A DNA stretch of 64,000 nt, from NCBI GenBank assembly GCA_951406725.2, contig OX597827.1, forward strand, positions 30,194,001 through 30,258,000, written 5' to 3'. The position numbers were made by a program, and so were the translations under genes. Below are positions 16,828 through 61,500 of this stretch, piece by piece (the stretch's first letter is position 1; each line of letters starts with the position of its first letter). The DNA comes from Octopus vulgaris (Eukaryota). The notes under the pieces were generated by a model, which made no database searches, was not told the origin of the DNA, and saw only the letters and a program-made list of their open reading frames with translations.

Positions 16828-16830
<3 letters not shown>

Positions 16831-18440
16831 GTTTTCTGTGTGTTTTCTGTGTGTTTTTTTTTGTGATTTGTGTGGGTTTCGTGTATATTCTTTTTAAGTT
16901 CCGTGTTTAATTTGTGTGTGTTGTATATGGTTTTTGTGCATGTTTTGTGTAATCTCTGTGGTTCGCGTGTTTTTGGTGTGTAATTTGCGTTTTTTGTGTG
17001 TAGATGTGTGTGTTTTGTTGATGATTTGTCTGTGATTTGTGTGTGTTTTGGGTGTCATTTATGTGTTGTGTTTTGTGTGATGTTTGTATGTGGTTTGTGT
17101 GTATTTTGCGTGTGATTTGAGCGTGTTTTGTGTGTTCTTTGTGTATTTGTTGTGGGGTTTGTATGGTTCGTGTGTTTTTAATTTTTTTGTGTCCTCTTTG
17201 GGATTTGTAGAGGGTTTTTTGTGTTTGTTTTAAGTTTCGTGTGTAGTTTGTGTGTTTTTTGTGTCATTTATGTGTTTCGTGAGTGTTTTTCCACTTGCTG
17301 TTTTGTGTGGTGTGTGGGTTTTTGTGTTTTGTGCCTACTTTGTGCCTATTTTATATGTGCTTTGCGTGTTTTTTGTGTGTGTTTTGTGAGTGGCTTGTGT
17401 TTGTTTTGTGTGTGTTTTCTGTGCGATTTGTGCATGTTTAGTGTGCATTGTGTATTTTTTAATGTTTGCAGTGTTTTGTGAGTGCTACTTGTGATTTTTG
17501 TGGTTCATGTATGGTTTAGGTGTTTTGTAATTTGTATTTCGTTTGCTCATTTTTGAGTGTATTTTGTGTCTTTTGTCTGCTTTGCGTGTGGTTGATGTAT
17601 TTTTGGGTTTTGCGTCTGTTTTCTGTTGTCTGTGTATAGTTTGTGGGTTTTTTGGGTGTCATTTGTGTGTTTTGTTTGTGTTTCGTATGTTTTGTAACTC
17701 TTTCCTGTGTGTTTTGTGTTTTACTATTAAGGTTTGGGTTAGTGTTTGTGTCTGTGTTTAGTGTGTTGTGAGTGTTTTTTGTGTGTTTTGTATTTTATTT
17801 GTTCTTTGTGTTTATTTTATGTGTTTGATTTTTTGTGTGCATTTTGTGTTTTTCGTTCTTTTGTGTGCTTGGTGAGTGGTTTGTGTGTTTTATGAATGTT
17901 TTGTATGTGATTTGCGTGCTTTGTGTGTTATTTTTGGGTTTTGGGTGTGTTTTCTGTTTTTCGTTTTTTGTGCTTTAAGCGGGTTTTGTATATATTTTTT
18001 GTGTGTTTTCTGTGTTTTTGTGTCTGTTTTGTGTGTGATTTTTGTGTTTTGTGTATATTTTTCTCGTCTTTTGCGTGTTTTCTGTTTGGTTGAAGTGTGC
18101 TTTGTGTGTTTTGTGTATAATTTGTGTGTTCTGTGAGGTTTGTGAGTGTTTTGTGTTTTTTGCGTGGGTTTTGTTTGTGCTTTGTGTATTTTGTATGTAT
18201 TGTGAGTGTTTTGTGTATAATTTGTATTTTTTTGTTGATTTTGTGAGAGTTTCGGCGTCTTGTGTGTGTTTTGTTTGTTCTTTGTGTCAATTTGTGTATT
18301 TTTGGGTTTTAGGTTGGTTTTGAGTATGTTTTCTGTGTGATTTCTGCGTTTTGTGCGTGTTTTATGTGTCTATTATGTGTGTTGCTGTTTTTATTTTTCT
18401 GTATTTTTTATTTTGTATTTTTTGTGTTTTGTGTGTCACA
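16828..18440. repeat. Degenerate T/G-rich cryptic repeat (rDNA IGS)
   Basis: Strongly T/G-biased on the plus strand with no exact period; same character as 32859-33225. Confidence 0.8.
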
Positions 18441-18815
18441 ATACGGGTCTGATTCCTTTGACTTATGGGTCGGACCACGTCGCCGTATTCACCAGTTGCA
18501 TATCGCCACACACTCCAGGCGATTGGCGGCATCGGTCGCGCCTACGTCCACGTTCACGTGGGCGAGAACGCGAGGTTCGCTTCAGCCTCACTAGATCGGG
18601 CACGGTAGCGCGGCGGAGCTCCGCGCGACTGGCGCAGGCCCGCCAATACCTGCACTGGCCGCAGTTTGTCATCTTTCGGGAATTTACGGGACGGACCACG
18701 TCGCCCTATCGACCGCGTGTATCTCGTGACATCCTTGCGGCATAGGTCGCGGCTACGTCCACGTGCACGTGGGCGACACCGTGAGCTTAGGTGCGTTCCT
18801 TCGATATCGGGCATA
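18441..18815. repeat. IGS sub-repeat module, homologous to 32236-32858
   Basis: Shared motifs CTGGCCGCAGTTTGTCATCTTTCGGGA, GGACCACGTCGC and CTACGTCCACG..ACGTGGGCGA. Confidence 0.85.
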
Positions 18816-18817
18816 TA

Positions 18818-19584
18818 AAATCGCCGCTTCGTGCCTCGTCGATAACACACGGACACACACACTCGTGGTCTTCGTCGTACTCAGACTTACTCCCCGGCAA
18901 TCAACCGGCCGCATAACTCGGCGCACTCGTGCACTCGACCGAGAACTCTCTCAAGTGAAATCGCCGCTTCGTGCCTCGTCGATAACACACGGACACACAC
19001 ACTCGTGGTCTTCGTCGTACTCAGACTTACTCCCCGGCAATCAACCGGCCGCATAACTCGGCGCACTCGTGCACTCGACCGAGAACTCTCTCAAGTGAAA
19101 TCGCCGCTTCGTGCCTCGTCGATAACACACAGACACACACACTCGTGGTCTTCGTCGTACTCAGACTTACTCCCCGGCAATCAACCGGCCGCATAACTCG
19201 GCGCACTCGTGCACTCGACCGAGAACTCTCTCAAGTGAAATCGCCGCTTCGTGCCTCGTCGATAACACACGGACACACACACTCGTGGTCTTCGTCGTAC
19301 TCAGACTTACTCCCCGGCAATCAACCGGCCGCATAACTCGGCGCACTCGTGCACTCGACCGAGAACTCTCTCAAGTGAAATCGCCGCTTCGTGCCTCGTC
19401 GATAACACACAGACACACACACTCGTGGTCTTCGTCGTACTCAGACTTACTCCCCGGCAATCAACCGGCCGCATAACTCGGCGCACTCGTGCACTCGACC
19501 GAGAACTCTCTCAAGTGAAAAGGCCGCTTCGTGCCTCGTCGATAACACACGGACACACACACTCGTGGTCTTCGCCGTACTCAG
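18818..19584. repeat. 140-bp tandem repeat, ~5.5 nearly identical copies
   Basis: Unit starts at 18821, 18961, 19101, 19241, 19381 and 19521. Confidence 0.95.
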
Positions 19585-19653
19585 CTCTGCTTTCGCTAGA
19601 CAGTAGATAGGGACAGTGGGAATCTCCTTCTCGCCTTCGATCCGTTCACCTTA
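19585..19653 (-). other. Ectopic copy of the 28S R1/R2 target region (downstream half)
   Basis: TTTCGCTAGACAGTAGATAGGGACAGT is identical to 23455-23481, followed by GGAATCTC, GATCCGTTCA and CCTTA. Confidence 0.9.
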
Positions 19654-21456
19654 GTGAGACTCAATAGAGTCGATTCCCTTTATTTTATTGTGGGCGGTCC
19701 CACACTGTCTCAGCCAATTCCCTAAACTTGCGTTAAAAAACGAATTTCTAAAAGAGTAAAAAAAATTCTACCTTAGTAGAGGGGATCTAAAATTAACAGC
19801 AAGGCGGGCGCTTCTTCGATGGGCAGAAGAAGCAAAATGTCAAATCCGGGTTTAAATTTATTTTATTTTCAGTTCCTATCGAGGCACGGCCCCCAAACCT
19901 TGCCACCTCCTCAAAAACAAAATAAAATAAAAGTTTTGAGGGGCATCCTGCACACCAACCTCTCGGTCCTCGAAAAAAAAAAGAAAAAAAATTTTGAGGA
20001 CTTCATCGAGGGGGTTTTATGTGCAGGATGCGATAGGAACTCTCAGGGTCAAATTCAGTATATGGGCCATTGGAATTACCTGCAGTGTAAATGGCTCTAT
20101 ACAACTGCAGGGAACGTTGATAACGGCCCAACGTGGTTGGGCAACACGCTCTTAACCCACAAGCCACCATCTTATACGGCTCCTGGCAACCGTATAGTTT
20201 AAGGATTTGGACTTCGCGGCATTTTCCAAGAGTACGTGGAAGAAAATCAAGAGTACAAGAGTAAGGAATCAAGCCCTGCAGACCGTAAGCCAACATCCTT
20301 CATAGCCAACCGAAATCCGCACACTAAGCCAAGTACCCTGCAACAGTCCGCGAAGGGCTCAATACTGACGGTTTACCCGTCAGTTGATTGGCTCCCGAAG
20401 TGAGGCCAAAAGTGAGTCCACTCATGCAATAAATTTTGTGAGCCACAACAATCTGGCGTCAGGAGACAGCAATCGAGAGCCACCCAGGGACAGCAGCCTT
20501 CACGAGGCGCTAACTTGTGGGCGAGATAAGAGGCAGGATGGAAGCACCCCATCCCCACCTCGCCCTGTCAGCAGCCCAAACCGGACAGCGAACCCAGCCG
20601 TTCTGACCTTAACCGTCCGTGGGCGCCACCCCGTAAAATTCTATATAGAAATGGGGGGCCTTCACACAACACCGAAGCCAGGTAGTGGCCGATCCGGATG
20701 AGCAGGAGGCCGACAAGCGCAGCCACGACCAACCAACAGGGTATCATCCCACTCTGTAAACGAAAATCTTCCACACTGCTTGGTCCCCACCAAATAATTG
20801 GAACCGCTATGGGGAAAAGACACATTTAGTTTGTCCGCGGACGGGTTGGCGCCCGCAAAAGCCAATAATGGCTTGCGTCCCGCCCCCCGCAGACGTAAGC
20901 TCTTAAACCACGACAAGGTAGTGTCCCCGTGGGTGAAGCCTGGCAGTGCATCCATCTCCCGGGTGAAACCCGGCAGATCATAACATACCAGACAAACTTG
21001 ATGGTGCATCCACCCTCTCGCCTCGCTGCCAATGTTCCAATCGGACACCGCAGGTGTGTATCCCCCTATACACCAACCACACCGGTGTTCCTATAGGACA
21101 CCGCAGGTGCCCCCAACCGACTGAACCTTTCTGCCCCCAACGAAACTCGGTGGGGTGGGGACAAATCGTATCAAATCGGCTATTCAATAAAGTTCACCCC
21201 AAGTGGATGAGCAGTAGGAACAACCACCCATTGCAAGGTTCGTGGGTCATAACCATCAAGCCCCACTTAAGAGAACCTTTCTGCCCCCAACGAAACTCGG
21301 TGGGGTGGGGACAAATCGTATCAAATCGGCTATTCAATAAAGTTCACCCCAAGTGGATGAGCAGTAGGAACAACCACCCATTGCAAGGTTCGTGGGTCAT
21401 AACCATCAAGCCCCACTTAAGAGAACCTTTCTGCCCCCAACGAAACTCGGCCCCAC
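19654..21456 (-). mobile_element. Putative non-autonomous R2-related element inserted in a 28S-mimic site
   Basis: Splits CTCTTAAGGT (minus strand). 19670-19705 matches the R2 3' end (23567-23601) at 30 of 36 columns. No RT or endonuclease ORF; many hairpins. Confidence 0.7.
21123..21450. repeat. 150-bp tandem duplication (2.2 copies) at the 5' end of the insert
   Basis: Units start at 21123, 21273 and 21423, and the two complete units include CCCCACTTAAGA. Confidence 0.95.
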
Positions 21457-21590
21457 TTAAGAGTAGTCGAAGTTACTCCCGCCGTTTACCCGCGCTCGAT
21501 ACCGAGAAGTTCAAGCCCGTACCCTCGGCTCTGCTTTCGCTAGACAGTAGATAGGGACACTCCTCGCCTTTGATCCGTTCATGCGGCGCC
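21457..21590 (-). other. Ectopic copies of the 28S target region (upstream half, linker, then a second downstream half)
   Basis: AGTTACTCCCGCCGTTTACCCGCGCT (21471-21496) equals 28115-28140. 21535-21559 equals 23455-23479. Confidence 0.9.
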
Positions 21591-22049
21591 TCACCGCTTC
21601 GACAACACACACTCGTGGTGTTCGTCGATAACGCCGCGTACTACTCAGACTTTGTCCGCCTCGCCACGAGACCGGGGCTCGCGCCCGATGCCGACGAGCG
21701 ACGACTCGTCGGCGGTTCAGGAGATTACATACAATCGGACTGCCACATGCTGACGCAGCCACCCTGTGTACGCGCGCACTAAGCAGGAGGTGCCGTTTCT
21801 TCCACTTCTCACTTAAACGAACCTGCAACGGAGCGCGCGCTGCTAAGCCCATGCGCGCTCGATCCGGCGGCCAAGACGAAGGCGGTTACGGCGACGACTA
21901 CCGCGCGCTAAGTCGTTCGCCGCAGACACACTTCGACGATCGGCGCGATCGTAACGACTCCCAGCCGCCCTTCGATCGCGCCGTAACACTTTTGCCATCT
22001 TTCGCACCTCCACCTCCGCCTTCCGCCTCGAAGGGGCGGATCGTGTCGT

Positions 22050-22628
22050 TTGCGAGAAGAGACTCAATAGATCGCAGTGTGGTAGCTGCTCTACTAAGCA
22101 CGTCACTCCGAACGGCAAGTCGGGTCGTATGCAAGCGATCCCTTTCGTCTCGATCTCTTCGAACTAGTCGGGGCGGGACGACGAGCAGACGACGACGGCG
22201 CGAACGCCGCAGCCGCCGCCGCGTCCCCGAATGGCAATTCCGCCGGCGACGCTGCCGCTCGCCGCGCGAACGCGACGGGCGGACGAGCTAAGGCATGCGC
22301 CTTGAGGTTGAGACGCTTTTGGAAAACAACTCGAGTCCGGCTACGGTTCCGGCTTAGAGGCGTTCAGCCGTTATCGCTCAGAGGCAGCCTGGCACCACCG
22401 CTCTATCGAGCGAGCGCGCAAACCGTTGCTCTGATCCCGCGGTTCCTCTCGTACTGGACGGGATAGCCGTAGCCGAGTTGACGTTGCCGACGCCCGCCTA
22501 AGGTCGGCCGGAGAAACGCCGGCGGCACGGCCAGGACGGACGACGCGCGAGCGCGCCGCCGCCTCGACCGCACGCCGAGTACCCCGACGCGACTCGGGGC
22601 GCCGCGTACGCGCGATGCATCGGTAGGA

Positions 22629-22675
<47 letters not shown>

Positions 22676-22778
22676 GTTAGTGGGTGAACAATCCAACGCT
22701 TTGCGAATTCTGCTTCGCAATGATAGGAAGAGCCGACATCGAAGAATCAAAAAGCGACGTCGCTGCGAACGCTTGGCC

Positions 22779-22821
<43 letters not shown>

Positions 22822-23429
22822 CGGCGGACGCATAGCTCGCCGCTGTAATTCGGAAAGGATCGATGGGCCACGCTTTCGCGGTCCGTATTCGTACTGAAAA
22901 TCGAAATCGAGCGAGCTTTTGCCCTTTTGCTCGACGTGTGGTTTCCGTCCACGCTGAGCTCGCCTTGGGACACCTGCGTTACCATTTGACAGACGTACCG
23001 CCCCAGTCAAACTTCCCGACCGACACTGTTCTCGACTAAGGGTCGCGCATCGGCTGCGCCGACGTCCGCAAAGGCGCTCGACATGCAACGCGCGCTTCGC
23101 ACCAGATAATGAACCACCGCTCGGCGACGGCCCGATCCCTTCTCCATCGAGTGAGCGAGGAAACTACGGAAGTGGCGGTTTTTCATCGTCGCAAACGCGC
23201 GCGACACCCCGACGTCGAACGCGCTTAGCCGACGGCGCCCACGGCGCACCGACGAGACCGATGCCGCGCGAGGCGACGACGGAACCAACAGCACGCCAGC
23301 GCGCCGCCGGTGACGGCAGCGCCCGGCGCGGGGCAACGCGAATGCTACCGCCTATGTTACGCCTACCGTGTGCCCTCACAAAACCGGACTAGAGTAAGCT
23401 CAACAGGGTCTTCTTTCCCCGCCGATCCG

Positions 23430-23464
<35 letters not shown>

Positions 23465-23499
23465 CAGTAGATAGGGACAGTAGGAATCTCGTTGATCCG

Positions 23500-23541
<42 letters not shown>
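22050..23541 (-). rRNA. 28S: 28S rRNA, 3' part (downstream of R2)
   Basis: Conserved blocks such as GTCTAAACCCAGCTCACGTTCCC, GCAATGATAGGAAGAGCCGACATCGAA and CACTAATTAGATGACGAGGCATTTGGCTACC. The 3' end position is approximate. Confidence 0.95.
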
Positions 23542-26500
23542 GGTTCTTGCAGAAATTAATCCGCAATCGTTCCCTGTTGTTTACTGTGGGTGGTCCCACA
23601 CGCACTCTGTCATAGCGACGCGCGCGCTGTCCCTCCGGGATTGTCCCGCTCTGCCATGGCTAGTGATCTTAATCACGGCCTTAGACATCATTTCGGCGGA
23701 TGTCTTTTTCGGTCATGTCCGTTCCCCCGTCCGGAATTGGCACCCCTCGGGCGGCATTGGAGGTGTGGGCCTAGATTCCCGTTTTTGCCGCACCTGGCGC
23801 TGTGTGGTATCAGCGTCAGAGAGTGGCATCAGGGTCCGGTTTTCCACACATAACGCTCTTCGGACAGGCTCGGACCTATATTTCTTGTCAGGTAAACTCC
23901 TGGATCACCTTGGGAGTAGCGTTTATTCTGGTGGGGTCCCCGCAGGAGTATGAGCGCTTCGACTGCGGGGAAGTTACGTTTTTAGACTGGCTCACGTACT
24001 AGAGGGCGGGTCCAGTCGTCCCGCGCCCTCAGCCCTGCGGTGAACGGCGCAGGGACCCAGAAGCTCGATACGCGCCTTGCTTCGGGGGACCCGCGGGGGG
24101 AACTGACGGGGTGACCGACAGAATCGCGTGGTTTAGTTTGTGATAGGCCTCGGGAAATCGAATTCGAGAGAGGCTGATGAAGAGATCAACCTAGTCTGTT
24201 CTTACTGACAATAACCTCTAGTAACGGCGCCCAGGCGTGGGCCGCACCGTCCGATCCCCGCCACTGGATCAACTCCTCAGCATGTTAAGCGTGCAGAGCA
24301 TGGCAGTTCTGCTTAGTAATCGCATGAAACGCTTATCCATGATACGCAGCGCAGCCAGCGCCTCCTCGGCCTCGGCGCACCAAGCGCCGCAGGCTCCTAT
24401 CGGACAACCGAACACGCGTACCGGTAGATCCAGCTCCCTTTGGGGGAGTGGTATCAGCGGCCGGTACTTCCTTTCTTTCTCGCGCGCGGCGTCCCTCAGC
24501 GCCGTATCTTGCTCGTACCTGACGGTCACGTCTATAACGACAACTTCACTAGAATTGCGGAATACTAAATCGGGGATTAACCTAAATCGGGGATACTCGA
24601 TAGACCGACTCCCAGCCGGTCATCCAGCCATACCGTCCGGCCTCCCTAGCCACCAGCCGGCATATTCGATTGTGCCTGGCCAGCCTCTGCGTTTTGAGGC
24701 GTGAGCACTGGCCACTGATGTGGGAGATCGTCTCCGACGCGCTTTTGCACTTCCTACAGGTGCTATCGCCACGGCCTCCCCGAGTGAGGCATTCGCGGGT
24801 GGGAAACGTGTTGGTCCGCATCTTGAGTATCCCCAAGTAGCATTCCTCAGATATCCCGCCCGGTCGCGTCATCCAGCTATTTCCGATCTGGTCCGATTTA
24901 AAGGCGGCGGCGCAGACACCCTGGACCGGTTGCGATTCCCACCTCTTGGCGCCTAATCTCGATCCGGGACGTACAGGTTGCCATCATTTTGGACAGACGG
25001 AAGATCGTATAGGGCGGCCAGCTCCTCGTTCTTAATGGCGAGCCGGGCCGCCTGAGCTTTGTTCGAACGGCATCGTAATCTGAGTTCAGTAAATGCTGAT
25101 TCCTGCGAATCACGTTTTTTGGAATAGCGCGTGCTAACTGACAGAGGCTGAGGCCCCCGACCCTTCTTGCGCTATACAGGAAGCTTTTAGAAGCCGAATC
25201 GGGGAGATGGAGCATCCTTCGCGCCCCAACTCTTATTGCCATATCCAGTTCATCCAGTGCTACTTTCGGTGGTATCGCCTGTGTTAGTCCGTAAAACAGG
25301 CTCGGCAGGTAGTATTGCTGTAGTATCATGAGCTTTTGACGGGGCTTTAAGGGAGCCCGGCATATATCGTCTATGCATCGTGATACGGTCTCTACCGATG
25401 TGTCTCTGTTCTGTGTCGACCAGGGGAGAGATTTTACCCCTAGGTACGGCACGCTTTCGTCCGGTTCGACTCGTGGCAATGGGCACCCATCGAGTTCTGG
25501 CGGCGACGTCACGTTAACTAGGAACGACTTTCCCCAGTTCCGAATGGAGAACCACGCGCATTTGGAGACGTTAATGGAGAGCCCTACCGCGTGGTAGAAC
25601 TCCGAGCAATGATCGAGGAGGCTCTGTAGTCCCCGGCTAGAGCCGGAGACTAGCACTAAGTCGTCCGCATACGCGAGGCCCGCCATGACCGCACCACCGC
25701 CCGCCATGACCGCCCATATTGGCGGGCAGGGCTCCTAGCAGCGGGTCGGTCGCGATGTTGAATAGGAGCGGTGATAGGGCGTCGCCCTGTCGGACACCGC
25801 GCCTAATCTCGATCGGCGTGCTGCTCTCGGTCCCAATCGTGAATGTGGTGGTGGAGCCCTCGTAGAGCTGTCCCACTAGTCTGATCAGGTGGTTATCGTA
25901 GCCGAGCCTTCTCATGCCCGCAAAGATAAGGGATTGCGAGACCGTGTCGAAGGCTTTGGCTAGATCCAGGAAGGCTATTTCTAGCCCCGGGAGTTTAGGT
26001 CGGACGTGCGTTGCCCCCTGGCGTGGTCCAGTAGCCGGCGGAGGAGAAAGTTATTCTCGCCGCATCCGTCAGCCTTAATGAAGCCGCGCTGGGAGGGGTT
26101 GAGGGGCGTTGCCTGGAGCATCCTGGCGGCAAGCACCTTCGTGTATAGGCGGTATACCGCGGGACAGATGGTGAGCGGGCGCCAGTTGGACATGTCATTT
26201 GGGCTTCCTGCCTTCTTTCGAAGGAGGATCGACCTGCCACGCAACAGGATCCTCGGAACACGTCCCGTTAGTAGTAGGCAGTTGAATATGTTGGCGAGGA
26301 CTGCAGGGTCGACTGCCCTGACTTCGCGAGGTGTCAGGCCATCGGGGTCGGCGGCAGAGGCCGGATCAATGCGTCGGCGGGCGATCTTTAGCTCCTCTAC
26401 GGTGAACGGACACAAAATGGAGGTGTTGTCCACCGCGGAGGAGGCCGGATAGGCGCTTAGGTCGACCTCTGGCCCCGGTCGGGAAAGCCTGTCCCGGTAG

Positions 26501-28103
26501 AGCGCTTCGATGTCGCTCATCGGGACGGGGCACTCGCCCCCTAGGTCCTCACCAAGTATCACTGCCATAAGCTTTTTCCTGTTGAGAGCGAATAATCGCT
26601 GGAATCGCGCGTAGCGTTCTACCTTCGCGCGTCGATTTGGTGGTCTTGGTCCAGTGCCAATTCGCTGTTTCGATGGTCCTGGTCCAGTTCCAGGGGTGGT
26701 CCGCCTTTTCCTTTCACGAGCGCTCACCCGGCCTGATGCCATGTGGCCCACCCATTCCTCTACACGATTCTCGAACTCGATCCAGTTCAACTCCGAGCAG
26801 TCCTCGCTGAGTGCCAAGAGGGAATCTGCGAAGGACGAAGCCCAAGTGGAGTGACCTGGTGATGCAGCTTGACTGAACGGCTCCCGCCAGTCCGGGACTG
26901 CGGGCTGTGCCGTGCTCCTCATGGTCGACGTCCGCCCGGAGGTACGTGCGAGCTGAGCACGCTTTTCCCTCTTGCGTGCTATTTCGTTCATCCGACTATC
27001 TATCCTGCGCCTGTTCGCCTGCACAGGGTGCATATGCCTAATGTGCTGTGACAGCCCCGAAGCCGTACGGAAGGCTTGGCTGCACCATTCACATTTGTGG
27101 GGGAGCTGCTGAGATACTAGTGCCGTTGGAACCGCGTTCCCCTTGCACTTTCCTGCGTGGCACCTGACCGAGTGGAGGTGGCCGCTTTCATGGCCGCAGC
27201 GGCTGCATCTGTAAGACAGGCTTCCGGGTATGCCTGTTGAGTACGTGGAGCCCCCATTCGAGAGGGCTCGAGAAGTGTCGAGGGCAAAGTGGACACACTA
27301 TGGAAATCGACGCGCATGGAATCTCCAGGGTGAACGCATCGGCCGACGGTTGGCAGGCCACGCCGCTATCAATAGCCTCCCCCATGGGCGGTCCGTCCTC
27401 ATAATAGCGAGGGAGAACGGACAGGGGAAGGCCGGCGAGAGCGTCGTGGCCGCCGCGAGCTCCGGCGGGAGTTGCTCACCACGGAGAACCAACGTGTGGG
27501 ACGCGCATTCGAGAACAAAGCGGCCCGGTTTGTCCCTAGAGACCGTAAGCGACTTGAAGCCACTTTTACTAGACATGATCGGGGGGTCTACCTGATTACG
27601 CCGAGGAAGGCTAGACCTTGTACCCACCTCAGGGGGAAGTAGCTTTTCGCCACGGCGTGGGCACGTCCCATGCCGCAACTGATATCGAGGCCCTTCCCGG
27701 GACCTCGACACCGCCAGTTTCGCGGGGCCTGACACCCGTATGGCATTAAAGTTTACGTTTTGCATCATGTTTTTCGAGCGTTTCTCCGTGAGCTCGAGCC
27801 GGATTTCCAGGCAGACTGCCAGTGCACCCCAACCCCAAACGCGCGTAGGGGCCGCCCCAAGGAGTGATCACCAGATGCACGCACGGGTTCGCCATACACA
27901 CATAGGAGGGGGGACCGGAGCCCCGCCCTTAATAACCGCCCCAGAGTCAGCGGAGTCTCCAACCGTTTCGGTTCAGTCAGGGAGATCGGGCCGCCTTCGT
28001 TAGTCCAATGCGATGCAACCAATTCGGTATGGTTGAACCTACCGGTGTATCCGACACCGTCCGACGTAGCTCACATCACGGATGTAAGCTCTCTTGCCGC
28101 GAC
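23542..28103 (-). mobile_element. R2: R2 retrotransposon (three N-terminal zinc fingers, R2-A type), end to end but frameshifted
   Basis: Lies between GACTCTCTT and GGTAGCCAAATGCC of 28S. Fingers CPLC..H..H, CSRC..H...C and CEWC..H..H at ~27030-27300. RT motifs WRPL, QRGF, DLAKAFD, GVRQGDALSPLLFN, YADD. CRKC..ETISHISGQC and RHN. Endonuclease PDL..DV.VRYE..KERKY. Stop at 24269. Confidence 0.95.
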
Positions 28104-28142
<39 letters not shown>

Positions 28143-28300
28143 GTTGAATTTCTTCACTTTGACATTTAGAGCACTGGGCAGAAATCACATCGCGTCTGTG
28201 CGGCTCGGCCAGCTACACGATGCTCTGTTTTAATTAGACAGTCGGATTCCCCCGGTCCGTACCAGTTCCGAGTCGACCGTTCGCCGCCGGCCGAACGTCT
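28104..28300 (-). rRNA. 28S: 28S rRNA remnant upstream of the R2 site
   Basis: AAGAGAGTCATAGTTACTCCCGCCG...GAGCACTGGGCAGAAATCAC...TTAATTAGACAGTCGGATTCCCC; recognisable homology fades at about 28300. Confidence 0.9.
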
Positions 28301-28680
28301 GCCGCGCGTCGCGGTGCGCGACGACGACCGACCCCTTGCGGAGCCGAGCCGCGCGCGCACCGACGCGACGGCGGTCATCGGAAGGCCAAATCGCGCGGTC
28401 GGCGAGGCAGGAAGGAAGAGAGAAATGGTCATGGAGCTCGCAAAGCGTGCAAGCCCCGTCGTCCGAGCGCCATGAGGGCGGGCCGATGCCGGCAGGGTGG
28501 TTGAGCGGTCGGCAGCAGAGAGTGCGGCGTGTCGGCGGGCTGCCGCGACTACTACTGCTGCGCTGTTAGAGGGCCGAAACAAGAGCATTCGGTGGTACTC
28601 GGGCGAGGGGGCCCGGCCGCGACTTGAAGAAATGGGCGGATCGCAAGTTTGCGTTTTCGAAAGAAAAAACAACACGACGC

Positions 28681-28738
<58 letters not shown>

Positions 28739-28835
28739 AGCGATCGGGTTCGGTCGTCTTCTCCGGGCCATCAGAGAACGCGCGACGACGGCGCAGAACG
28801 CCGCCGCACGTAAGCGGACTCGTCGGCCAGATCCG

Positions 28836-28872
<37 letters not shown>

Positions 28873-29552
28873 GATCGACGCGGGCTGATGACTGCGCCTA
28901 CCGGGAATTCCTCGTTCACGTGGTTGGTTCCAGGCCCCGATCCCTATCACGGGAGGTGGTTCAGAGGTTTCCCGACCCTCTCGGGCCGGGGAAGACGCGC
29001 CCGCTGATACCTCCAGTGTAGCGCGCGTGCGGCCCCGGACATCTAAGGGCATCTCAGACCTGTTATCGCTCCGCCTCGTGCGGCTTTCTGCCGCCCGTCC
29101 CTCTAAGAAGCGCTGCGTTCGCCAACCGACTGGCCCGGACGCGACGGCGTGCCGCCGCCGGGCTCGCGCGGGCCGAGCCGACCGGGTCACCGCCGCCGCT
29201 CCGCAACCGACACCGCACCCACGCCGCGACCGCCCCCGCGAGGGGGACGGCAGCCGGACGCGGCCGCAGCGCCGGACGCGGCCGCAGCGCCGGACGCGGC
29301 CGCAGCGCCGGACGCGAAGGAGAGCGGCGGCAACGGCAAGCCCGGGCCGCGCGCGGAGCTACCGACGACGGCTTCGGCGCCGCCGCGCTACCGGAAAAGC
29401 ACTAATCGACGCGCTAGTTAGCAGGCCGGAGTCTCGTTCGTTATCGGAATCAACCAGACGGATCGCTCCACCAACTAAGAACGGCCATGCACCACCACCC
29501 ACCGAATCGAGAAAGAGCTATCGATCTGTCAATCCTACCGGTGTCCGGACCG

Positions 29553-29585
<33 letters not shown>

Positions 29586-30833
29586 TGTTTTGCAACCATA
29601 CTCCCCCCGGAACCGACTATGGTTTCCCGCGCAGGCTCCCCGCCAGGTCATCGAAGCGAACGCCGGCGGAGCGCCAGTCGGCATCGTTTACGGTCGGAAC
29701 TACGACGGTATCTGATCGTCTTCGAACCTCCGACTTTCGCTCTTGATCGAGGAAAACGTGCTTGCCACACGCCGTCGCTGCAGTGCGTCTTGCGACGATC
29801 CAAGAATTTCACCTCTAACGTCGCAATACGAGTGGCCCCGATCGCTCCCTTCGATCATTGCCTCGTCGTGAATGGAGACCGACGGATGACGCGCGGACGA
29901 GGCCATTTTCCATCATTCCATGCTTTTCGTATGCAAGCCGGCGGGGCTCGCTCTAAGCACTCTAATTTTTTCACAGTGAACGTACCGGCCGCCTCGGACA
30001 CTCGGCGAAGAGCACCCTCGGAGGAACCGTGCGGGCCGAAACGACCGGGAGGTGGACGCGCTACTACCGCTAGAACGCGAACGGCGACGACGCCCAATAG
30101 CGCACCCGCCTCGTGGCTCCCGTGCGCGCCGGACCGACCCGCGCCGTTGAGGGCGCAGGCGTGAAACCGGACACGACGCGGCGCGGACGAAGACGAGCGC
30201 TGGACGGGGTGCCGAGTCGCGGCGGCGACGCGAGCAGAGCTCTGCGGCCCGACCGCGCACGCACCGGCGAATAGGGCCGGGAGTGCGAACGGACGACCGA
30301 AGCGGACGCGCCAGAAGCGCGCCTGCGACGGCACTGTCGGCCACCACGGTCGGCACTGACCGGGCCGTCGACAGTTGATAGGGCGGACTCGCGGGGGACC
30401 CGTCGCGCGAAGGCTAGTGCGATACTAGCCCATGCGATCGTACTGACAGTTATCCAGAGTCACCGCGACCAATGCGGAAGGCCGACCGTATCGTCGCGAC
30501 CGAGAGGGACGGGCGCGGATGCGCCGCCCCCGAACCGGCCGAGCGGACGCCGGCGGCGAACTACGGCGACGCCGCGAAGACGCGACGGCTGCCGAACGCC
30601 GTTTTCGAGCCCGACGCCCGGGTGCGACCTGCGATCGCGGCTTCGGTTGCATGTATTAGCTCTAGAATTGCCACAGTTATCCACTCTCCTCGCGGTGGAA
30701 GAATACGGTCCCGAGGATTAGGTCCGGTTCCTGAGCCATTCGCGGTTTCACCATTCGTTTACGGCATGAACTTACACTTGCATGGCTTAAGCTTTGAGAC
30801 AAGCATATGACTACTGGCAGGATCAACCAGCTA
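28681..30833 (-). pseudogene. 18S: 18S rRNA pseudogene with GC-rich expansions and core deletions
   Basis: 5' CTGGTTGATCCTGCCAGTAGTCATATGCTTGTCTCAAAG and 3' GTAGGTGAACCTGCGGAAGGATCATTA are present. Universal blocks such as GTGCCAGCAGCCGCGGTAA are absent. Confidence 0.9.
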
Positions 30834-32235
30834 TCACCGACGTTTCGAGAGAACGAAGCGCGGCGGGAGCGGCGCGGAAGCTCGGGAAGCAGCCGCCGCC
30901 GATCGGAAAAAAACGAGAAGAAAAGGAATCGGAGGGGCCGAAAACGGGCGCGGGCGCTCACGAGTTCAGCCGCCGTTCGTATACGCGCGCGCCTCCTCCA
31001 ACGCTGGGGCGGAAGAGGCGAAAACAAACGAGTCAACGCGCGAAGAAGCGTTCGCGGAACAAAAACGGTTTACGATCCGACTGCCGCACACCGGTGCCGC
31101 TGCGGACGGGCTCCGGTGCGGGTCGATTGGAAGTGGGGCCGGTTCCGGGCGGAAGAGGAGGAGGCGAAAAAGGCCAGCGACTAAGTCGGCAGACGAGAGG
31201 GGCAGCGGCGATTGGCGGGCCCGCTGCAGCTTTTAGACCCGCCCGGCGCCCTATGCGTCGGTGGTCGCTTCTTCCTCCTAATCCTTTCGAAACGGCTGCG
31301 ATGAACTGCGTCCGGACTGCAGTCAACGAGCGAGTGCCATGACGGTGGTCGCCACGAAAACGACGCGCGCCAAGGGGTGATGCCGGGAGGGGGAAGCTGC
31401 AGAAACGCTACGACGCAGCGAAACCCGGAGTTGAAGCCACGGTTCTGTCCAGGGAAGAAGGGACAGACACGGCACCGCTCTCTTTCGGAGACGCCGTGTC
31501 GCCTGTGGCGGAACGGGAAGCGAGGGCTAGCCCGTCAGCCGCGCCGGCGGCGACACGACACAAGGTCAGCGGCGTAACCTGACCGGGTCCTCGGCTGCGA
31601 AGACGAGGCCGGGGGTCAGAGGAGGAGGCGAGAGAAAATGCGGTAACGGAAGCTCGGGAAGCAGCTGCCGCCGATCGGAAAAAAACGAGAAGAAAAGGAA
31701 TCGGAGGGGCCGAAAACGGGCGCGGGCGCTCACGAGTTCGGCCGCCGTTCGTATACGCGCGCGCCTCCTCCAACGCTGGGGCGGAAGAGGCGAAAACAAA
31801 CGAGACAACGCGCGAAGAAGCGTTCGCGGAGCAAAAACGGTTTGCGATCCGACTGTCGCACACCGGTGCCGCTGCGGACGGGCTCCGGTGCGGGTCGATT
31901 GGAAGTGGGGCCGGTTCCGGGCGGAAGAGGAGGAGGCGAAAAAGGCCAGCGACTAAGACGGCAGACGAGAGGGGCAGCGGCGATTGGCGGGCCCGCTGCG
32001 AGAGGACAAACCTGCGGGCGTTGAAAGGTGGGCGTGAAGAGGCGGGCAGACGCGGGCGTCGAGGGAACGCGTCTGAAAGGCGGGTGGTGTGGCGGCGGCG
32101 GCAGAAACTCGAGGACGCGCCAGCCGTGTATAGTCGACCTTGCACCGGCAATAGGGGAGCTAACCGTTGGCAGAAAGGAGCGTCGACAACACCTAGAGCG
32201 TGACTATCCAGCCGGGGCCGACCCATAAGCCTACA
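30834..32235 (-). other. 5' ETS / promoter region with a ~350-bp direct repeat (30876-31228 / 31647-31999)
   Basis: Lies directly upstream of 18S; the two GC-rich blocks are near-identical. Confidence 0.8.
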
Positions 32236-32858
32236 GGTCTGATTCTTTCGACCTCCGGGTCGGACCACGTCGCTCCATTTACCCGGTGCGTATCGCAACA
32301 CACCCACCGAGACTGACGGCATCGATCGCGCCTACGTCCACGTGTACGTGGGCGACACCGCGAGGTTCTCTTCAGCCTAACTTCAGCCTGGAGCTGAGGG
32401 CGAAGGCGGGCTCGGGCCCGCCGCTATCGCCCGATACCTGCACTGGCCGCAGTTTGTCATCTTTCGGGAACTTACGGGACGGACCAAGTCGCCGTATCGA
32501 ACGCCTGTACCTCCCAACATCGGTCGCGGCTACGTCCACGCGTACGTGGGCGATACCGCGCGCTTAGTTTCGAGCTTTCGATTTCACGCACGGTAGGGCG
32601 GCGGAGACGCGGGCGACCTCGTGCTAGCTGCAGTTTGTCATCTTTCGGGATTTTACGGGACGGACCACGTCGCCGTATCGAGCGCGGGTATCTCGTGAAC
32701 GCCTTCCGGCATCGGTGGCGGCTACGTCCACGCGTACGTGGGCCATACCGCGGGCTTAGGTTCGTTCTATCTATTTCGGGCACTGTCGCGTGGCGGAGCT
32801 GCTGGCGAAGGCAGCCCCTACTTATACTGGCCGCAGTTTGTCATCTTTCGGGAATTTT
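32236..32858. repeat. IGS sub-repeats (~190-bp period, ~3 diverged copies)
   Basis: GCAGTTTGTCATCTTTCGGGA at ~32449, 32630 and 32833. Confidence 0.85.
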
Positions 32859-33225
32859 CATCGAGCTTGTGTGCTTTGTGTTTTGTTTGTTCTTTGTGTC
32901 TATTTTATGTGTTTTGTTGATTTTTGTTGTGTACTGTGTGTTTTGTTTCTTGTTTGTGTTTCGCGTGTATTTTGTGTCTGTTTCTGTTGTGTTTGTACTT
33001 TGGTTTTTTTTAATTAGTGTTTTTTCTTTTTAATTTGTGTGTTTTGTGTGTAATTTGTGTGGTTTTTGTGAGTGGAGTGTGTGTGATTTTTGTATTTTGT
33101 GTGTTTAGTGGATATTTTTCTCATCTTTTTTGTAGACTTTTGTGTTTCGTGTGTTTCCTGTGTGGATGTGTTTTATGTGTAATTTGTGTTTTCTCTTTGA
33201 GTCGTGTGCGTTTTGTGTGTGTTAG
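32859..33225. repeat. Degenerate T/G-rich repeat (IGS)
   Basis: Same composition and strand bias as 16828-18440. Confidence 0.8.
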
Positions 33226-42876
<9,651 letters not shown>

Positions 42877-45835
42877 ACAACTTAAAAGTTGTATTTAGTA
42901 CTTATTTGCGATATTTTGACACATTTTGATTCCTGATAATCTTATTATCACAAAAGTTCTCAGAAATAAAAAATGCCAAAATATTGGAAATAAGCATAAG
43001 AGAGTGAACAAAATTTGTAACTTAAATTGTTCTTTAGTACTTGCAATGTTTTGCATTTAAGTATAACAAAGTTAATTTTGACGTATCCTGAAAATTTTTG
43101 ACATTTTTGTCAATCAATCAGTTAACATAAATATGTTAACTGATTAATAGTTACAATAGACACGATATTTTGATCTCTTTGATAAATATAATCTTATAAT
43201 GAATCAATTAACTTATATTTACCCAAGAGATCATGCGTCACAAAATTTTTCAGAAAAATTGCAAACTTTCCACATTTTTGTGAATCAGATAAAATATTTA
43301 TCCAATAGTCACAAAAGTTTTCAAACAAGAAAAAATGTGTCAGTATATTAAAAGGAAACAAAATTGCAACTTAAATGTTGTATTTTGTACTTATTTGCAA
43401 ATTTTGACACATTTTGATACCTGAAGAAAACAAAATGTCAAAATATTAGAATTGAACAAGAGAGTAAACAAAACTTGTAACTCAATTTTTTTAGTACTTC
43501 TTTGCAATATTTTGACAGTTTTCAAAAGTTTTCAAAAAACAAAATGATCACACGTCAGAAAATTTTTCAGAAAACAAATTTTTTCAAACTTTTGTAATTA
43601 ATTATAACCAAGTGAACAAAATTGCAAACTCAGATTTAGTGTTTCATATTAAATGAGGCATTTTTTATCCTGAAAACGTTAGACACTTTGGAAATAAGCA
43701 TAAGAAAGTAAAAAAAAACCTGTAACTCCAGTTGTTCTTTAGTTCTTATTTGCAATATTTTGACAAATTTTATCAAAATATTATTAAGCATAACAAAAGT
43801 GAACAAAATTGCTCTCAAATATATTGCTTATTTATCCTGAAAACATTTGACATTTTTACCTAATAACAAAATTTTTAAGAAAACAAATTTTGTTAAAATA
43901 TTATACTTAAGCTTAACAAAAGAGAACAAAATTGCTAACTCAAATGTAGTGTAAGTATACTATCCTAAAAACTTTACACATTTTCGTGATCTCTTCTATC
44001 TTTTTGTGAATATAATCGTATCAATCAAAAGGTGTTTTTTAGTACTTATTTGCAATAATTTGAAACTTTTTTTTATCCCTTTGTTAAATATAATATTATC
44101 AATCAATTAACTTATATTTACCCAAGGATTACGCGTCACAAAAGTTTTCAGAAAACGAATTCTTTAAAATATAAGCATAACCAATTGAATAAAATTGCAA
44201 ACTTCAATTTATTGTTTATTTTGACAGACTTTGTATACTAAAAACTTTTGACATTTTTGTCAATGAATCAGTTAAAATATTTACCCAATAGTCACAAAAG
44301 TTTTCAAAAAATAAAATGTGTTAAAATATTACAGATAAGCATATAAAAGGAAACAAAATTGCAAATTTGATTTGGTTTTTGTTCTTTTTTTGACACATTT
44401 TATAACCTGAAAACTCTTGACACTTTTTTTTATCTCTTTTAAAAATATTATTCTATTATCAATTAATTAACTTTTATGACAAATTTAACAGTTAACAATA
44501 TATTGAAGTATTTTGCTTTTTGAAAACTTTTGCTTTCACTTTTGTGTTGATATTTCACATTTGTTTTTATTCACAAAAATGTGAAAAGTTTTCAGGATAC
44601 AAAGTGTGTCAAAAGAAACATTAAATTTAAGTTTGCAATTTTCTTCACTTTGTTGCAATATTTCAGAAAACAAAATGTCAAAATATTGCAATTAAGCATA
44701 AGAAAGTGAACAAAATTGCAAACTTAAATTTATTATTTCCTTTGATACACTTTGTATCCTGAAAACTTCATATTTTTGCAAATAAAAACAAAAGTGAAAA
44801 ATCAACACAAAAGTTTTCAAAAAACAAAATGTTTCAATATATTATACAAGGAAACAAAATTGCAACCCAGTTGTATTCACTCCATATTTGCAATATTTTG
44901 ACACATTATCAAACGGTGAACTGATAATTAACCGAGATCAAAAGTTTACAGAAAACAAAATCAAGCATAACAAAAGTGAACAAAATTGCTAACTCAAATG
45001 TAGTGTTTAAAAGTACATCTCACACCTTTTGCATCCTACAAAATTCAGACTTTTTGTGATTTCTTGTTCAGTTAACAAAAGTCAAAATATTGCATTTAGG
45101 AAAGTGAACAAAATGCCAACTAAAATTTATTGCTCATTTTGTCACGCTTAGTATCCTGAAAACTTTTCACATTGTTGTGAATCAGAACAAAAGTGAAAAC
45201 AAAAGTTTAAAAAAACAAAATGTTTTAATATATTGCAAAGAAGCATATAAAAGGAAACAATAATGCAACTCAAAAGTTATATTTAGTACTTTGTTGCAAT
45301 ATTTTGACACATTTTGATTCTTGATAAACTAATCAACTGATATTGAAAACTTAAATTTATTGTTTCTTATTTGCAATGTTTTGATACATTTTGATTCCTG
45401 CCAAAAAAATGTGAAAATATTGGAAAGAAGCATCAGAAAGTGAACAAGATTTCTAACTCAAGTTGTTTTTTTGGCACTTATTTGCAATATTTTGAAAATT
45501 TTTTTTTGAAATCAGAAAGAAATTTTTTCAAAATACTGAAATTAAGTATAAAATATTGTAATTACGCAAAATGAACAAAATTGCAAACTGAAATTTATTG
45601 TATCCTGAAAACTTTCCACATTTTTGTGAATCAGTCAGATAAAATATTTACACAATAGTCACAAAAGTTTTCAAACAATGAAAAAATGTGTCAATATATT
45701 GCAAATATATTGCAAATAAGCATATAAGAGGAAACAAATTGCAACTTAAATGTTGTTTTTAGTACTTATTTGCAAATTTTGACACATTTTGACACAAATT
45801 GTCAAAATATTAGAAATAAATAAGCATAAGAAAGT
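42877..45835. repeat. Inverted copy of 38232-41180
   Basis: Reverse-complement match checked at both ends and at several internal points. Confidence 0.9.
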
Positions 45836-45844
45836 ATATATGTA

Positions 45845-53958: not shown

Positions 53959-57516
<3,558 letters not shown>

Positions 57517-58505: not shown

Positions 58506-61500
58506 CTAGCAGCATAGCCCGGCGTTGCCCGGGTATGTAAGAGCCCCTAGTAGGCAACGACTAATCCCAATGTAGTCCTTTCCCTCCAGGGAACGAAGGT
58601 GCATGTGGACGTTGCAATGTCTTGTCTTCACTGGAATACTTCTGTATATACGATGTTCCTAGCTGTCCGTTTGGGCGAAAACATGAAAACATCATTGCGC
58701 CTCCCAACGCGTGAACAGCCCACGTAGAGTTGACCGTGGGCGAAGCACTGTTCGCCCAAATGTAACCCAGCGACTTGTAGCGTTTGGCCTTGGGATTTAT
58801 TGATGGACATTGCGAAGCAGAGTTTAACAGGAAACTGAGAACGCCTGAAGTGGATTGGTAGGTCAGCGCCCGACGGTTGAAGGTGCATCCGTGGAATGAA
58901 GACGTCCTCTCCCTTCCCACAACCGGTAAGTATTGTGGCCGTTATTAAATGTGGTGCCAAATGTTTCACAACCAAACGTGTGCCGTTGCACTGTTTAGGT
59001 GGAACCAAATTCCTGATGAGCATAATGGGCGCACCGACTTTTAACTTCAGGATGTGTGGTGGCAGGCCTGGCGGTTCAAGTGAATTCAGGAATTCAACAG
59101 GATAATCGGCAAGCTGGGCGGGGTCTGCTGTCCTATCTATAGATTTGTAGACGTGGACATCACAGGAATAGCTTCAAGTAGCTGGATATTGATGGAGTTG
59201 ACGGTTGTATTTTTGGGTGCGAGAATAGCTCTGCCTGCCAGCCATTTTAGGTCGCGTAAATTGGTTTGTAGATCGTGGAAGACAGCGTCCCGGAGGCTAG
59301 CAGGGGTGTCGACAATGGTGCAAAGTGAGTCCAATTGAACGTAGCCATCCACATCAGACAGCATCCTATTTTCACCGAGCGATAAGAGGTCCCTGGAGAA
59401 TGCAGCGGATCCGCTGTCACCAATTAACTGCGCGCGCATGTTAGTTTGGAGGTGCAAGGGCCGCACATGTGCCCAAAGAGCTGACGACTTAAGGCACGCG
59501 CGCACGGCATCGGCATGGGTTCCTTTTGGAATAACAGGTAGAGTCTGCCTGAAGTCTCCTGAAAGAAGTAAAGTTAATCCTCCCATGGGGGCCGTAGAGT
59601 CTCTGATGTCTTGCAGGGACCTGTCCAGTGCCTCAAGGGCGCCTTTGTGTGCCATAGTGCACGCGTCCCATACGATGAGTTTGCATCTGCGCAGAATGTC
59701 GGCCTGTTCTGAGTTCTTGGCGATGTTGCAGATAGGTGACTCGGACTTTGCCAGATCGAGCGGGAGTCTGAAGGCAGAGTGGGCGGTTCTGCCACCCGGA
59801 AGCAACGTGGCCGCGATATCAGAGGAAGCTACAGCCAGGGCAATGTCCGTGTTGCGTCTGACCTCTGCCAGAATTAGTTTAGTGACGAAGGTTTTGCCAG
59901 TGCCGCCGGGTGCATCAAGGAAGAAAATCCCCCCACGTTGCTGTCTGACAGAGTCTACGATGGTGTTGTAGGCTATGCGCTGGTCTGGAAGCAGCCGTAG
60001 TTCATTATCTTGGACGTACTGGTGCAGTTCCTCAATGCAGTAGGAAGTTTCGCGTAACAATTCAGCAGACATAACATTGGCGTGTTCACGTGTGGGTGGT
60101 GGAAGGCCGTACTCTGTTAAAGCAGATCCACCCATATCGATGACAGCGTCTTCGAGTTGAATGAGCGCAAAATTGTAAATGAAGTTGGTGAACGTGATCT
60201 CGGCGGAAGGGCAGTGTTGCTGAGCCGTACGTAAGAAGTCGTGCGACATGTCATCCCTGTATTTCATCCAGAGACTTAGTGGATCACTAAGCTGACATTT
60301 TTGAATAAGGATTGCGAAAAGATGTCGTAGGGCCGAATGCGTTTGCAGTAAAGCACCCTCTGCCATCGTGGCGTCCCACTGGGAGTCATCCTCTAGAAGG
60401 CCAAGTCTCATACATGCTTCCCTGAAGGTGTCGCACAGAACCCCATTGACGGTACGTATATTGCCGAAACCTGTTGGACCAGTGACCTCATGTAGGAGAC
60501 GGAGGTAGAAGCATTCTTGCTGGTTTGGCGGGATGTTGTAAGCTCGACCCAGGCAGGAGTCAAACTTGACGCCTGGGAAGCTTTCGACGTTTTCGCCGGA
60601 TTTCCGTCGAACCCAGGTGTTTTTAGACCACACGAAGTACGATGGGACCTGTGGGTACAAAAGCGTTCGAGCGAAGTCATCACGTTGGCATAATTTGAAG
60701 AAACCAGTCAACGTTGTGTCTTTAGGGCTGGTGGCTATCTGCACAGCACTTTGCTCTGTGAAGTAAATCCGCTGTCCATTTTCCAAGTGTACAGCAAGCT
60801 GCACCACAGCCGGGTGTCTCTGATGGAGCGGGAAGCCGTAAATGCGCCAAAACGCTTCGTTGCTGCTGAGGTACCGGCCAGCCAAGTAGTTGGACACTTC
60901 GTCGCGACTGGTGGTCCTCTGGATGCTGAACATGGCAGCATCGCTGCCTTTGTTGATATATTTGCAGACATATTGTATTGACCTGATGGAGCTGCAGAAC
61001 TCAACGTTGACGTGGGCTTTGAATATCTTCGACAGGAGAGGACAGTAGGGGACAATGTAGCTGTTGTCCACTTGATGTCGCCCAACCGTAATCGTGCGGC
61101 CTCCATTGGCTGGACTCCTTCGTTTGTACAGCGGATACCCATCGCCGCCTGTTTGAGTCTCCAAAGTGAACCGTTTAGGGAATCCCTTTGAGCAGGCTAA
61201 TCCGTTTTTGTAGCATGGTGTGTTGGCGTAATTTGGTCCACAGGGCCCGTGTACCATGGTAGTGCGGACAATTTCGTAGAGTCCGGGGTCCTCATCGGGG
61301 TCAGGAATCTCGGCGGAAATGAATTTGTCAATGTCATTAGTCTCGATTTTATGAGTGAGCCAAATTAAGATGTGAGCATGTGGCAAGCCCCTCTTTTGCC
61401 ACTCGACCGAAAACATGTGGCACCTGACATGCCCGAAAATCTGACCCTTAACTATCAAATCCTTCATTTTGCCCAAATTCAGACGGAAAACAATAGCAAC

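Follow-up and report, generated by a model that had tools for sequence, protein, structure and literature searches.

A second R2 target captured in the ribosomal DNA spacer of octopus, probably once used by R2 elements and now decaying

The R2 retrotransposon is considered to be almost exclusively tied to a single site in the 28S rRNA gene and is under development as a tool for gene insertion. Targets of R elements have been described outside this gene before. The available text of Stage and Eickbush 2009 (PMC2718515) reports a 22-bp R1 target in the rDNA spacer of Drosophila ananassae that had received one R1A and seven R1B insertions, and the accessible part of a review (PMC10946416) links an R2 element of a butterfly to the spacer. 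Beyond insertion itself, R2 cuts trigger the recovery of rDNA copy number in Drosophila according to the available sections of PMC10266012.

The octopus locus described here is comparable to the D. ananassae case in that a piece of 28S with an R-element target lies in the spacer and has been used. However, judged by the available text (PMC2718515), it differs in that the target is that of R2 and not R1, spans about 200 bp with both flanks, and is present in all assembled units of the tandem array. Moreover, the D. ananassae site appears in that text as a brief mention without a history, whereas octopus fossils record the origin of the site, its use, scars centred on the cut, and a later empty allele. 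The history that we propose also resembles R2-triggered rDNA recovery, i.e., breaks made by R2 would be repaired from sister units, although this process is known, in the available sections of PMC10266012, for the Drosophila 28S site, while the role proposed here for a spacer site is hypothetical. A literature search at the level of titles and abstracts returned no copy of the R2 target in a spacer, no decoy proposal, and no cephalopod R2, and the word "octopus" is absent from PMC13188248 and PMC5035012. Given the R1 precedent, an R-element target in the spacer is thus a known kind of feature, while an R2 spacer site with an unusually complete and testable history appears to be new.

We propose, with a probability of roughly two in three (0.68), that a piece of about 200 bases of 28S around the R2 site came to lie in the spacer of each unit, roughly 0.6-0.7 kb downstream of the 28S end, that R2 once used it as a second target, and that a mutated empty allele has now spread as an uncut form. 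In our view it is likely that the site was once an active additional landing place and is now in decay, as opposed to a maintained decoy array.

The spacer site in a decayed, dispersed rDNA unit

On its minus strand, the window, i.e., the whole stretch of 64 kb analysed here out of an assembly of 2.8 Gb, contains a single rDNA unit in decayed form, and all window features given below lie on this strand. The 18S gene of this dispersed unit (28681..30833) reaches an Rfam score of 663 bits compared to 1341 bits in array copies, and its 28S gene is split over 22038-28373 according to Rfam. At the true R2 site, the 28S upstream half (28104..28373; Rfam LSU and comparison with the array) is separated from the 3' part of 28S, which includes the true downstream half (22038..23539; Rfam LSU, 97.7% identical to the array), by a frameshifted R2 retrotransposon (23540..28103) that was recognized by an RVT_1 match and a weak zf-C2H2 match. 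The remaining 5' part of 28S, ITS2, and the 5.8S gene are deleted. A stretch of 3' spacer that is 71-82% identical to the array spacer leads from the 28S end to the captured site (21595..22037).

Positions in the site (- and +) are counted from the R2 nick in 28S, and in the canonical R2 target the two recognition motifs are RUM at -34 to -22 and RASIN at -6 to +1 (available text of PMC10499050). Read in rRNA sense, the window first shows a downstream half that aligns to 28S at about +27 to +108 (21512..21594), then a linker that the alignment of dispersed copies identifies as a remnant of a spacer subrepeat (21497..21511), the upstream half of the R2 target from -41 to -2 (21456..21496), a 1.8-kb insert at the nick position (19650..21455), a second downstream half that covers +37 to +92 after the nick bases (19584..19649), and 140-bp repeats. 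The first-pass annotation, which had been made from the sequence alone, gave the order as downstream half, upstream half, linker, and downstream half; in rRNA sense, the linker, which derives from the spacer, stands between the first downstream half and the upstream half, and the insert separates the latter from the second downstream half. The three exact blocks of the annotation were confirmed, i.e., 26 bp in the upstream half (21471-21496, equal to 28115-28140), 27 bp in the second downstream half (19591-19617, equal to 23455-23481), and 25 bp in the first downstream half (21535-21559, equal to 23455-23479). Longer degenerate pieces around these blocks align to 28S within the window with E values of 4e-16 to 6e-8. 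The upstream half contains RUM and most of RASIN, positions +2 to +36 are deleted in the second downstream half, and derived changes at +86 and +89 are common to both downstream halves of the window. Older copies (C14, C16, C18, and C20:23.64 Mb) carry a longer subrepeat piece together with 28S -90 to -42 at the position of the linker.

The 140-bp repeats (18818..19584; TRF period 140, 5.5 copies) are ordinary spacer subrepeats, about 91% identical to the array subrepeat, and not derived from 28S. As candidates for older 28S mimics they performed no better than shuffled sequences: 102/500, 147/500, and 429/500 shuffles scored as high for three subrepeat types, the first of these numbers being that of the window subrepeat against the 28S target. 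The idea of a spacer built from an array of mimics had to be given up accordingly, with a single upstream half-site per unit and 140-bp repeats that are not 28S-like. By contrast, the claim that one mimic is occupied was correct, given that the 1.8-kb insert fills the spacer site of the window. The empty site that had been reconstructed from this copy needs correction because it includes a 1-base insertion near -9 that is private to the window, and the actual empty sites read TTCAGG|T.

R2 lineages, target rules, and the insert

The tandem array contains an R2 copy that is 90% identical to the R2 of the window and has an open frame of 1276 codons, in which we could read three N-terminal zinc fingers as well as Myb, RT, CCHC, and RLE motifs by eye. 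The best PDB matches of the 1276-aa product are the R2 proteins 9nl2 (E 4e-157) and 9dou (E 6e-153), compared to E 4e-91 for Bombyx 8gh6, and motifs and matches together place it in the A-clade, whose structures are the closest to it. According to the available text of PMC11204384, the N-terminal domains of A-clade R2 proteins bind only upstream of the nick, and ZF3-2 requires -40 to -21; upstream-only binding is also described in the accessible part of PMC12222951. This mode of binding fits the use of a spacer site that lacks +2 to +36.

Old spacer alleles are similar to the canonical R2 target in that RUM, and apparently also the spacing and the upstream part of RASIN, are kept and that insertions lie at the canonical nick. 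They differ from it in their location outside the gene and the deletion of +2 to +36, and the current allele is mutated. Positions -41 to -16 are unchanged in the window and C18 copies, as are -41 to -17 at C14, with a RUM that matches 28S. By the canonical definition, RASIN reads TTNANNT at a distance of 15 (or 16) bases from RUM, and TTAAG is present in the window, C16, and C20:23.64 Mb. The spacing between the two motifs is one base longer in the window, which Bombyx R2 tolerates as far as the available text of PMC10499050 goes. An intact full site was found in 0/13 old spacer copies. By rules that come from other R2 proteins, the current allele keeps the RASIN consensus and the spacing, while RUM carries an A to G change at -30 and position -39 is changed as well.

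The insert is a non-coding R2-type element of about 1.65 kb plus 5' duplications. Members of its family occupy the true 28S R2 site at C1 (two copies), C9, C27, and C29 with 3' junctions at +1, and its 3' end is R2-like, with a 3' motif that it has in common with R2 in the alignment. No R2 coding similarity was detected in it by tblastn (E >= 1.4). A predicted HDV-like ribozyme core (20818..20926) is marked by a motif that is present in 6/6 element 5' ends examined. Its P2, P3, and P1 pairings can be read in the window copy, where the predicted partner of P1 consists of target bases -9 to -3, and a search for Rfam ribozyme families in the insert gave no match. R2 ribozymes that use 28S bases have been described (available text of PMC3774820). 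The 5' end of the insert is duplicated in 150-bp steps (21123..21450; TRF 100% match, 2.2 copies), and the junction text shows that each duplicate opens with about 9 target-derived bases. The closest described element is R2 SIDE of Drosophila (accessible part of PMC3414825), which the insert resembles in its lack of coding capacity, its R2-like 3' end, the presence of its family at the 28S R2 site, and possibly its ribozyme predicted at the 5' end. The insert differs from R2 SIDE in its length of about 1.65 kb, its non-insect genome, a ribozyme that is predicted to use target bases, and its additional presence at a spacer site. Copies of the non-coding family at the spacer site are 86-92% alike and have different 3' junctions, and we regard them as separate insertion events because of this divergence of 8-14% and their unlike junctions. 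These copies sit among older subtypes of the family, while younger subtypes are found at true sites only.

The array allele, the census of hits, and the fossil ladder

The question of whether the mimics are a fixed feature of the spacer has a clear answer: all 7/7 tandem units at G000:C20:23.95-24.07 Mb carry the site at 655-688 bases past the 28S end, in an array that is collapsed to these seven units in the assembly. The possibility raised at the outset that they exist only in one decayed unit can thus be dismissed. The spacer site is empty throughout (0/7 insertions), and R2 occupies the true 28S site in 1/7 array units. Both array units that were scanned (2/2) gave full 18S, 5.8S, and 28S matches, with an 18S of 2643 bases. 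Contigs from 4/4 public runs with three organism labels span the spacer site, and -4, -30, and -39 show no alternative letter among the rows listed for these runs. Searches of metagenome contigs and plasmids gave no match. The blocks that had been described as exactly conserved are so within the window but not in the array, which is changed at -39, -30, -4, +71, and +85 and has a 3-base duplication at +70. In the upstream half, the current allele differs from 28S at -39, -30, -15, -14, and -4. Intact TAAGG|TAGCC occurs at only 6 sites in the loci examined, all of them in array 28S genes.

The upstream motif has 53 exact matches in the assembly, 25 of them spacer-type. R2-family elements lie at the canonical nick of the old allele in the window and, judged by their junctions, at C18, C9, and C7 (possibly also in the spacer site at C20:11.44 Mb), which bears out the earlier proposal of an R2 landing site. 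A second R2 lineage occupies the spacer site of C9 and that of C18, the latter with a stack of four elements, and an inverted 202-base piece of the R2 lineage of the window lies at the nick of C20:23.64 Mb. Insertions or indels over -6 to +1 affect 13/13 copies without TTCAGG (11/11 after merging two duplicates) vs. 0/12 copies with it, though this typing by base -4 is partly circular since the base is deleted in some copies. Splitting dispersed copies by the +85 marker instead, which omits C1:94.39 Mb and C9 where it is absent, gives hits in 8/8 old vs. 2/7 new copies (Fisher p 0.007), or 8/8 vs. 3/7 (p 0.026) if a capture 11 bases downstream is counted. Among new-marker copies, deletions remove the site at C27 and C5:8.70 Mb, and in the current-type copy at C1:148.63 Mb a fragment of 1.4 kb lies in inverted orientation 11 bases beyond the nick. 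Five TTCAGG units have an element at the true site, and the spacer site is empty in 5/5 of them. At C18:79.825 Mb, a pair of elements is headed by spacer-type upstream sequence and ends in true 28S; the junctions there, at C20:11.44 Mb, and of the second element at C7 may come from recombination between true and spacer sites.

With the most decayed copy as its root, the tree that we built from 19 spacer stretches (7 units without the anchor were omitted) has the shape of a ladder that ascends from copies without the site via long-upstream copies, the window type, and the TTCAGG type to the array. Subrepeats without a captured site are found at C2:57.26 Mb and C1:115.29 Mb. The earliest fossil with the site, C7:30.40 Mb, consists of an element, 28S +2 to +118 (95.7% identity), a subrepeat, 28S -90 to -6 (94.1%), and another element; its junctions are identical to those of later copies, and its two elements are only about 80% alike. 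Copies at C25:36.47 Mb and C26:3.76 Mb each preserve one junction alone at 95-98% 28S identity. A long upstream half with derived changes follows at C14, C16, C18, and C20:23.64 Mb, and it is trimmed to -41 in the window, C3, C29, and C33. The A to C change at -4 is first added in C11 and C2:103.4 Mb, and the changes at -39 and -30 are added in C1:41.39 Mb, C5:100.9 Mb, and the array. Because both downstream halves of old copies end near +108 and have derived bases in common, we interpret them as duplicates of each other. The number of R2 sites per unit fell from two in the oldest fossil to one now, and a captured site that is both empty and full-length, with subrepeats at its flanks, was not found among the loci examined, so that two deletions may have removed resident elements. 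As a separate observation, the block from -41 to -16 hardly changes over most steps of the ladder, and the loss of upstream sequence ended at -41, in agreement with the binding zone of A-clade proteins.

The R2 cut region is presumably the same as the Pokey and I-PpoI site, and the 14-bp R1 duplication motif was located by what we take to be its position in 28S. A role of R1, as suggested in the first-pass annotation, found no counterpart in the genome: an element follows the R1 motif in 0/38 exact matches, 34 of which continue as 28S and 4 with small changes. For the sparing of this 14-mer, the window stage gives p 0.05 and the array p 0.09. For R2, with RUM and RASIN defined as in the available text of PMC10499050, the two motifs are changed at 0/15 positions vs. 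12/71 elsewhere at the old stage (p 0.08) and at 2/19 vs. 13/71 on the lineage to the array (p 0.34), and tests of the longest unchanged run give p 0.07-0.31 in old copies and 0.62-0.81 in the array. Taken together, some of the old-stage tests lie at p 0.05-0.12 and those on the array lineage at 0.09-0.81. The claim that divergence spares the recognition motifs is therefore not backed by a significant result. Between window and array, the 28S-like pieces differ at 13/176 positions, the subrepeat at 11/139, the adjacent spacer at 40/228, and 28S at 11/1177. The 28S-like pieces thus change more slowly than neighbouring spacer and at a rate like that of the subrepeat; mild constraint is possible, while selection on the motifs is not demonstrated. 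We also considered that gene conversion from the 5' leaders of elements keeps the motifs intact and rejected it, given that the -15 and -14 differences persist beside insertions in the window and C18. Replacement by true 28S at the spacer site is seen at C9 only.

Explanations of the spacer site and their meaning

The history that we favour begins with the joining of 28S -90 to +110 to subrepeats, a piece that the fossils show to have been present twice. R2 was probably involved in this capture, either via an element with 28S flanks or through the repair of an R2 break, and two later deletions, perhaps those of resident elements, would have produced the downstream-upstream-downstream order. 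Concerted evolution could then have spread the site to all of the assembled array units, where it is present today. At least two R2-type families inserted at it, the nick also captured part of a third, and R2 endonuclease cutting may well have caused the indels. The changes at -4, -30, and -39 came later and may have made the site resistant to cutting, with the new allele rising either because hit units disappeared or because uncut sister units served as templates for repair; hit units would have been lost or left behind as dispersed fossils. Some points speak against this history. The current allele may still be cut, because the rules for Bombyx R2 in the available text of PMC10499050 tolerate the -4 change and the spacing is kept. 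The TTCAGG copies, being younger, have been exposed to hits for a shorter period, and insertions in dispersed copies could postdate their exit from the array. The lesions in new-marker copies, the possible constraint on the 28S-like pieces, the near constancy of -41 to -16, the assembly of just seven array units, and the possibly recombinant junctions count on the same side.

A host function as decoy is unnecessary to explain the site. We consider it quite unlikely that the host maintains the site so that it absorbs R2 protein or insertions and spares 28S, even though fixation in 7/7 units and under three organism labels, many hits in the past, the absence of changes in RUM and RASIN at the old stage, and the slower change relative to adjacent spacer would all be expected of a decoy. 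The current allele, which fits the Bombyx RASIN consensus and spacing, could in addition bind R2 without being cut and may in this way act as a sponge. However, the number of sites fell and was never amplified, the motif tests weaken further toward the array, and current copies are unused in 12/12 cases. Furthermore, the comparison of mimic and true sites that had been suggested revealed insertions at both and, in the dispersed units, no sparing of 28S: the true site is also occupied in 7/7 dispersed units with a hit spacer site (window, C9, C16, C18, C27, C29, and C33). We find no support for a decoy array upheld by selection.

To the notion that the spacer is a safe niche we give just as little credence. 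Elements in the 3' spacer would be co-transcribed by read-through, released by their ribozyme, and spread without breaking 28S, and full-length elements at the site indeed retain the target bases for the predicted P1 helix. The four stacked elements at C18 would suit such a niche, and the element pair at C18:79.825 Mb, with its spacer-type head and true 28S end, is as expected of a copy made from a spacer element. Yet unequal crossover also explains the C18 case, none of the array units has a spacer insertion today, the younger non-coding subtypes use true sites only, and the transcription through the spacer site that this scenario presupposes is an assumption. It is very unlikely, in turn, that the site is a neutral 28S fragment in which instability of a general kind, or exchange with the true site by recombination, caused the lesions and R2 cutting did not. 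Deletions by direct repeats that join the true site to the spacer copy at C28:10.21 Mb (and possibly C20:11.44 Mb) and the heavy rearrangement of dispersed units are in line with such instability, but private indels in the 13-row alignment are concentrated on the 7-base site with nearly indel-free flanking halves, and full-length elements with spacer-type sequence on both sides lie at the nick in the window and C18. Finally, the site might be a functional part of the rDNA that diverted insertions or breaks from 28S, gave elements a transcribed home, or served as a start of recombination that spread the site-bearing unit, which we regard as unlikely overall.

The dispersed rDNA copies turn out to form a series of fossils in which successive stages of the spacer can be followed. 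The genome offers a natural mutation series of the R2 site free of rRNA constraint, in which each allele comes with a record of its use, together with an R2 that has an open frame. Two questions thereby become open to direct tests: what bases of the target are required by an A-clade R2 in vivo, and whether an additional site in the spacer is of benefit to the host, is of benefit to the element, or merely disappears because it is prone to being cut.

Borders of the rDNA unit and other elements in the window

Degenerate TG-rich simple repeats lie on either side of the dispersed rDNA unit (window 16828-18436 and 32867-33200), both ends of which fall within one spacer repeat class, with a 76% match between 18442-18808 and 32232-32585. 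The window also carries, on the minus strand, an open frame of 1352 codons that encodes a Helitron-like N-terminal domain and a PIF1 helicase domain (59137-63195), and a reverse transcriptase frame in which a weak match to a PHD finger adjoins the RT domain (55021-56802). The arms of a large inverted duplication (38232-45836) are 99% identical (38232-41179 versus 45836-42878) and its centre is an AT-rich simple repeat.

28S fragments away from rDNA units

In the assembly (G000), about 12 tandem blocks at C29:25.635-25.702 Mb (excerpts L050-L053 and L064-L067) each comprise ca. 200 bases of 28S upstream sequence and then a segment from the second R2 lineage, the one filling the spacer site at C18 and C9; LINE-like sequence precedes the 28S part, and no rDNA unit surrounds these blocks. 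One R2-type element beyond rDNA has 28S bases -41 to -5 at its head (C24:14.309 Mb, L102), and several degenerate copies of this R2 upstream motif (-41 to -5) occur in an AT-rich, non-rDNA setting at C4:35.690 Mb (L100:900-1900). Downstream 28S sequence (+35 to +135) is found in ordinary DNA within three tandem repeats of 120 bp (C23:22.0715 Mb, L119).

Spacer-site copies and recombination with the true site

The earliest spacer-site fossil begins directly after a C2H2 zinc-finger-like coding stretch (C7:30.4015-30.4023 Mb, L130 and L131). Some 600 bases of 28S upstream sequence and an R2-type element amid spacer subrepeats (C1:115.287-115.289 Mb, L057) are a separate case, in a unit without the spacer R2 site. 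At C28:10.214 Mb (L127), the spacer downstream half is fused to the true 28S upstream half and the 28S 3' third is gone; the same arrangement, likewise without this third, is possibly present at C20:11.44 Mb (L030). In such joining of true upstream to spacer downstream half, the two sites behave as a direct repeat for deletion at C28 and possibly at C20.
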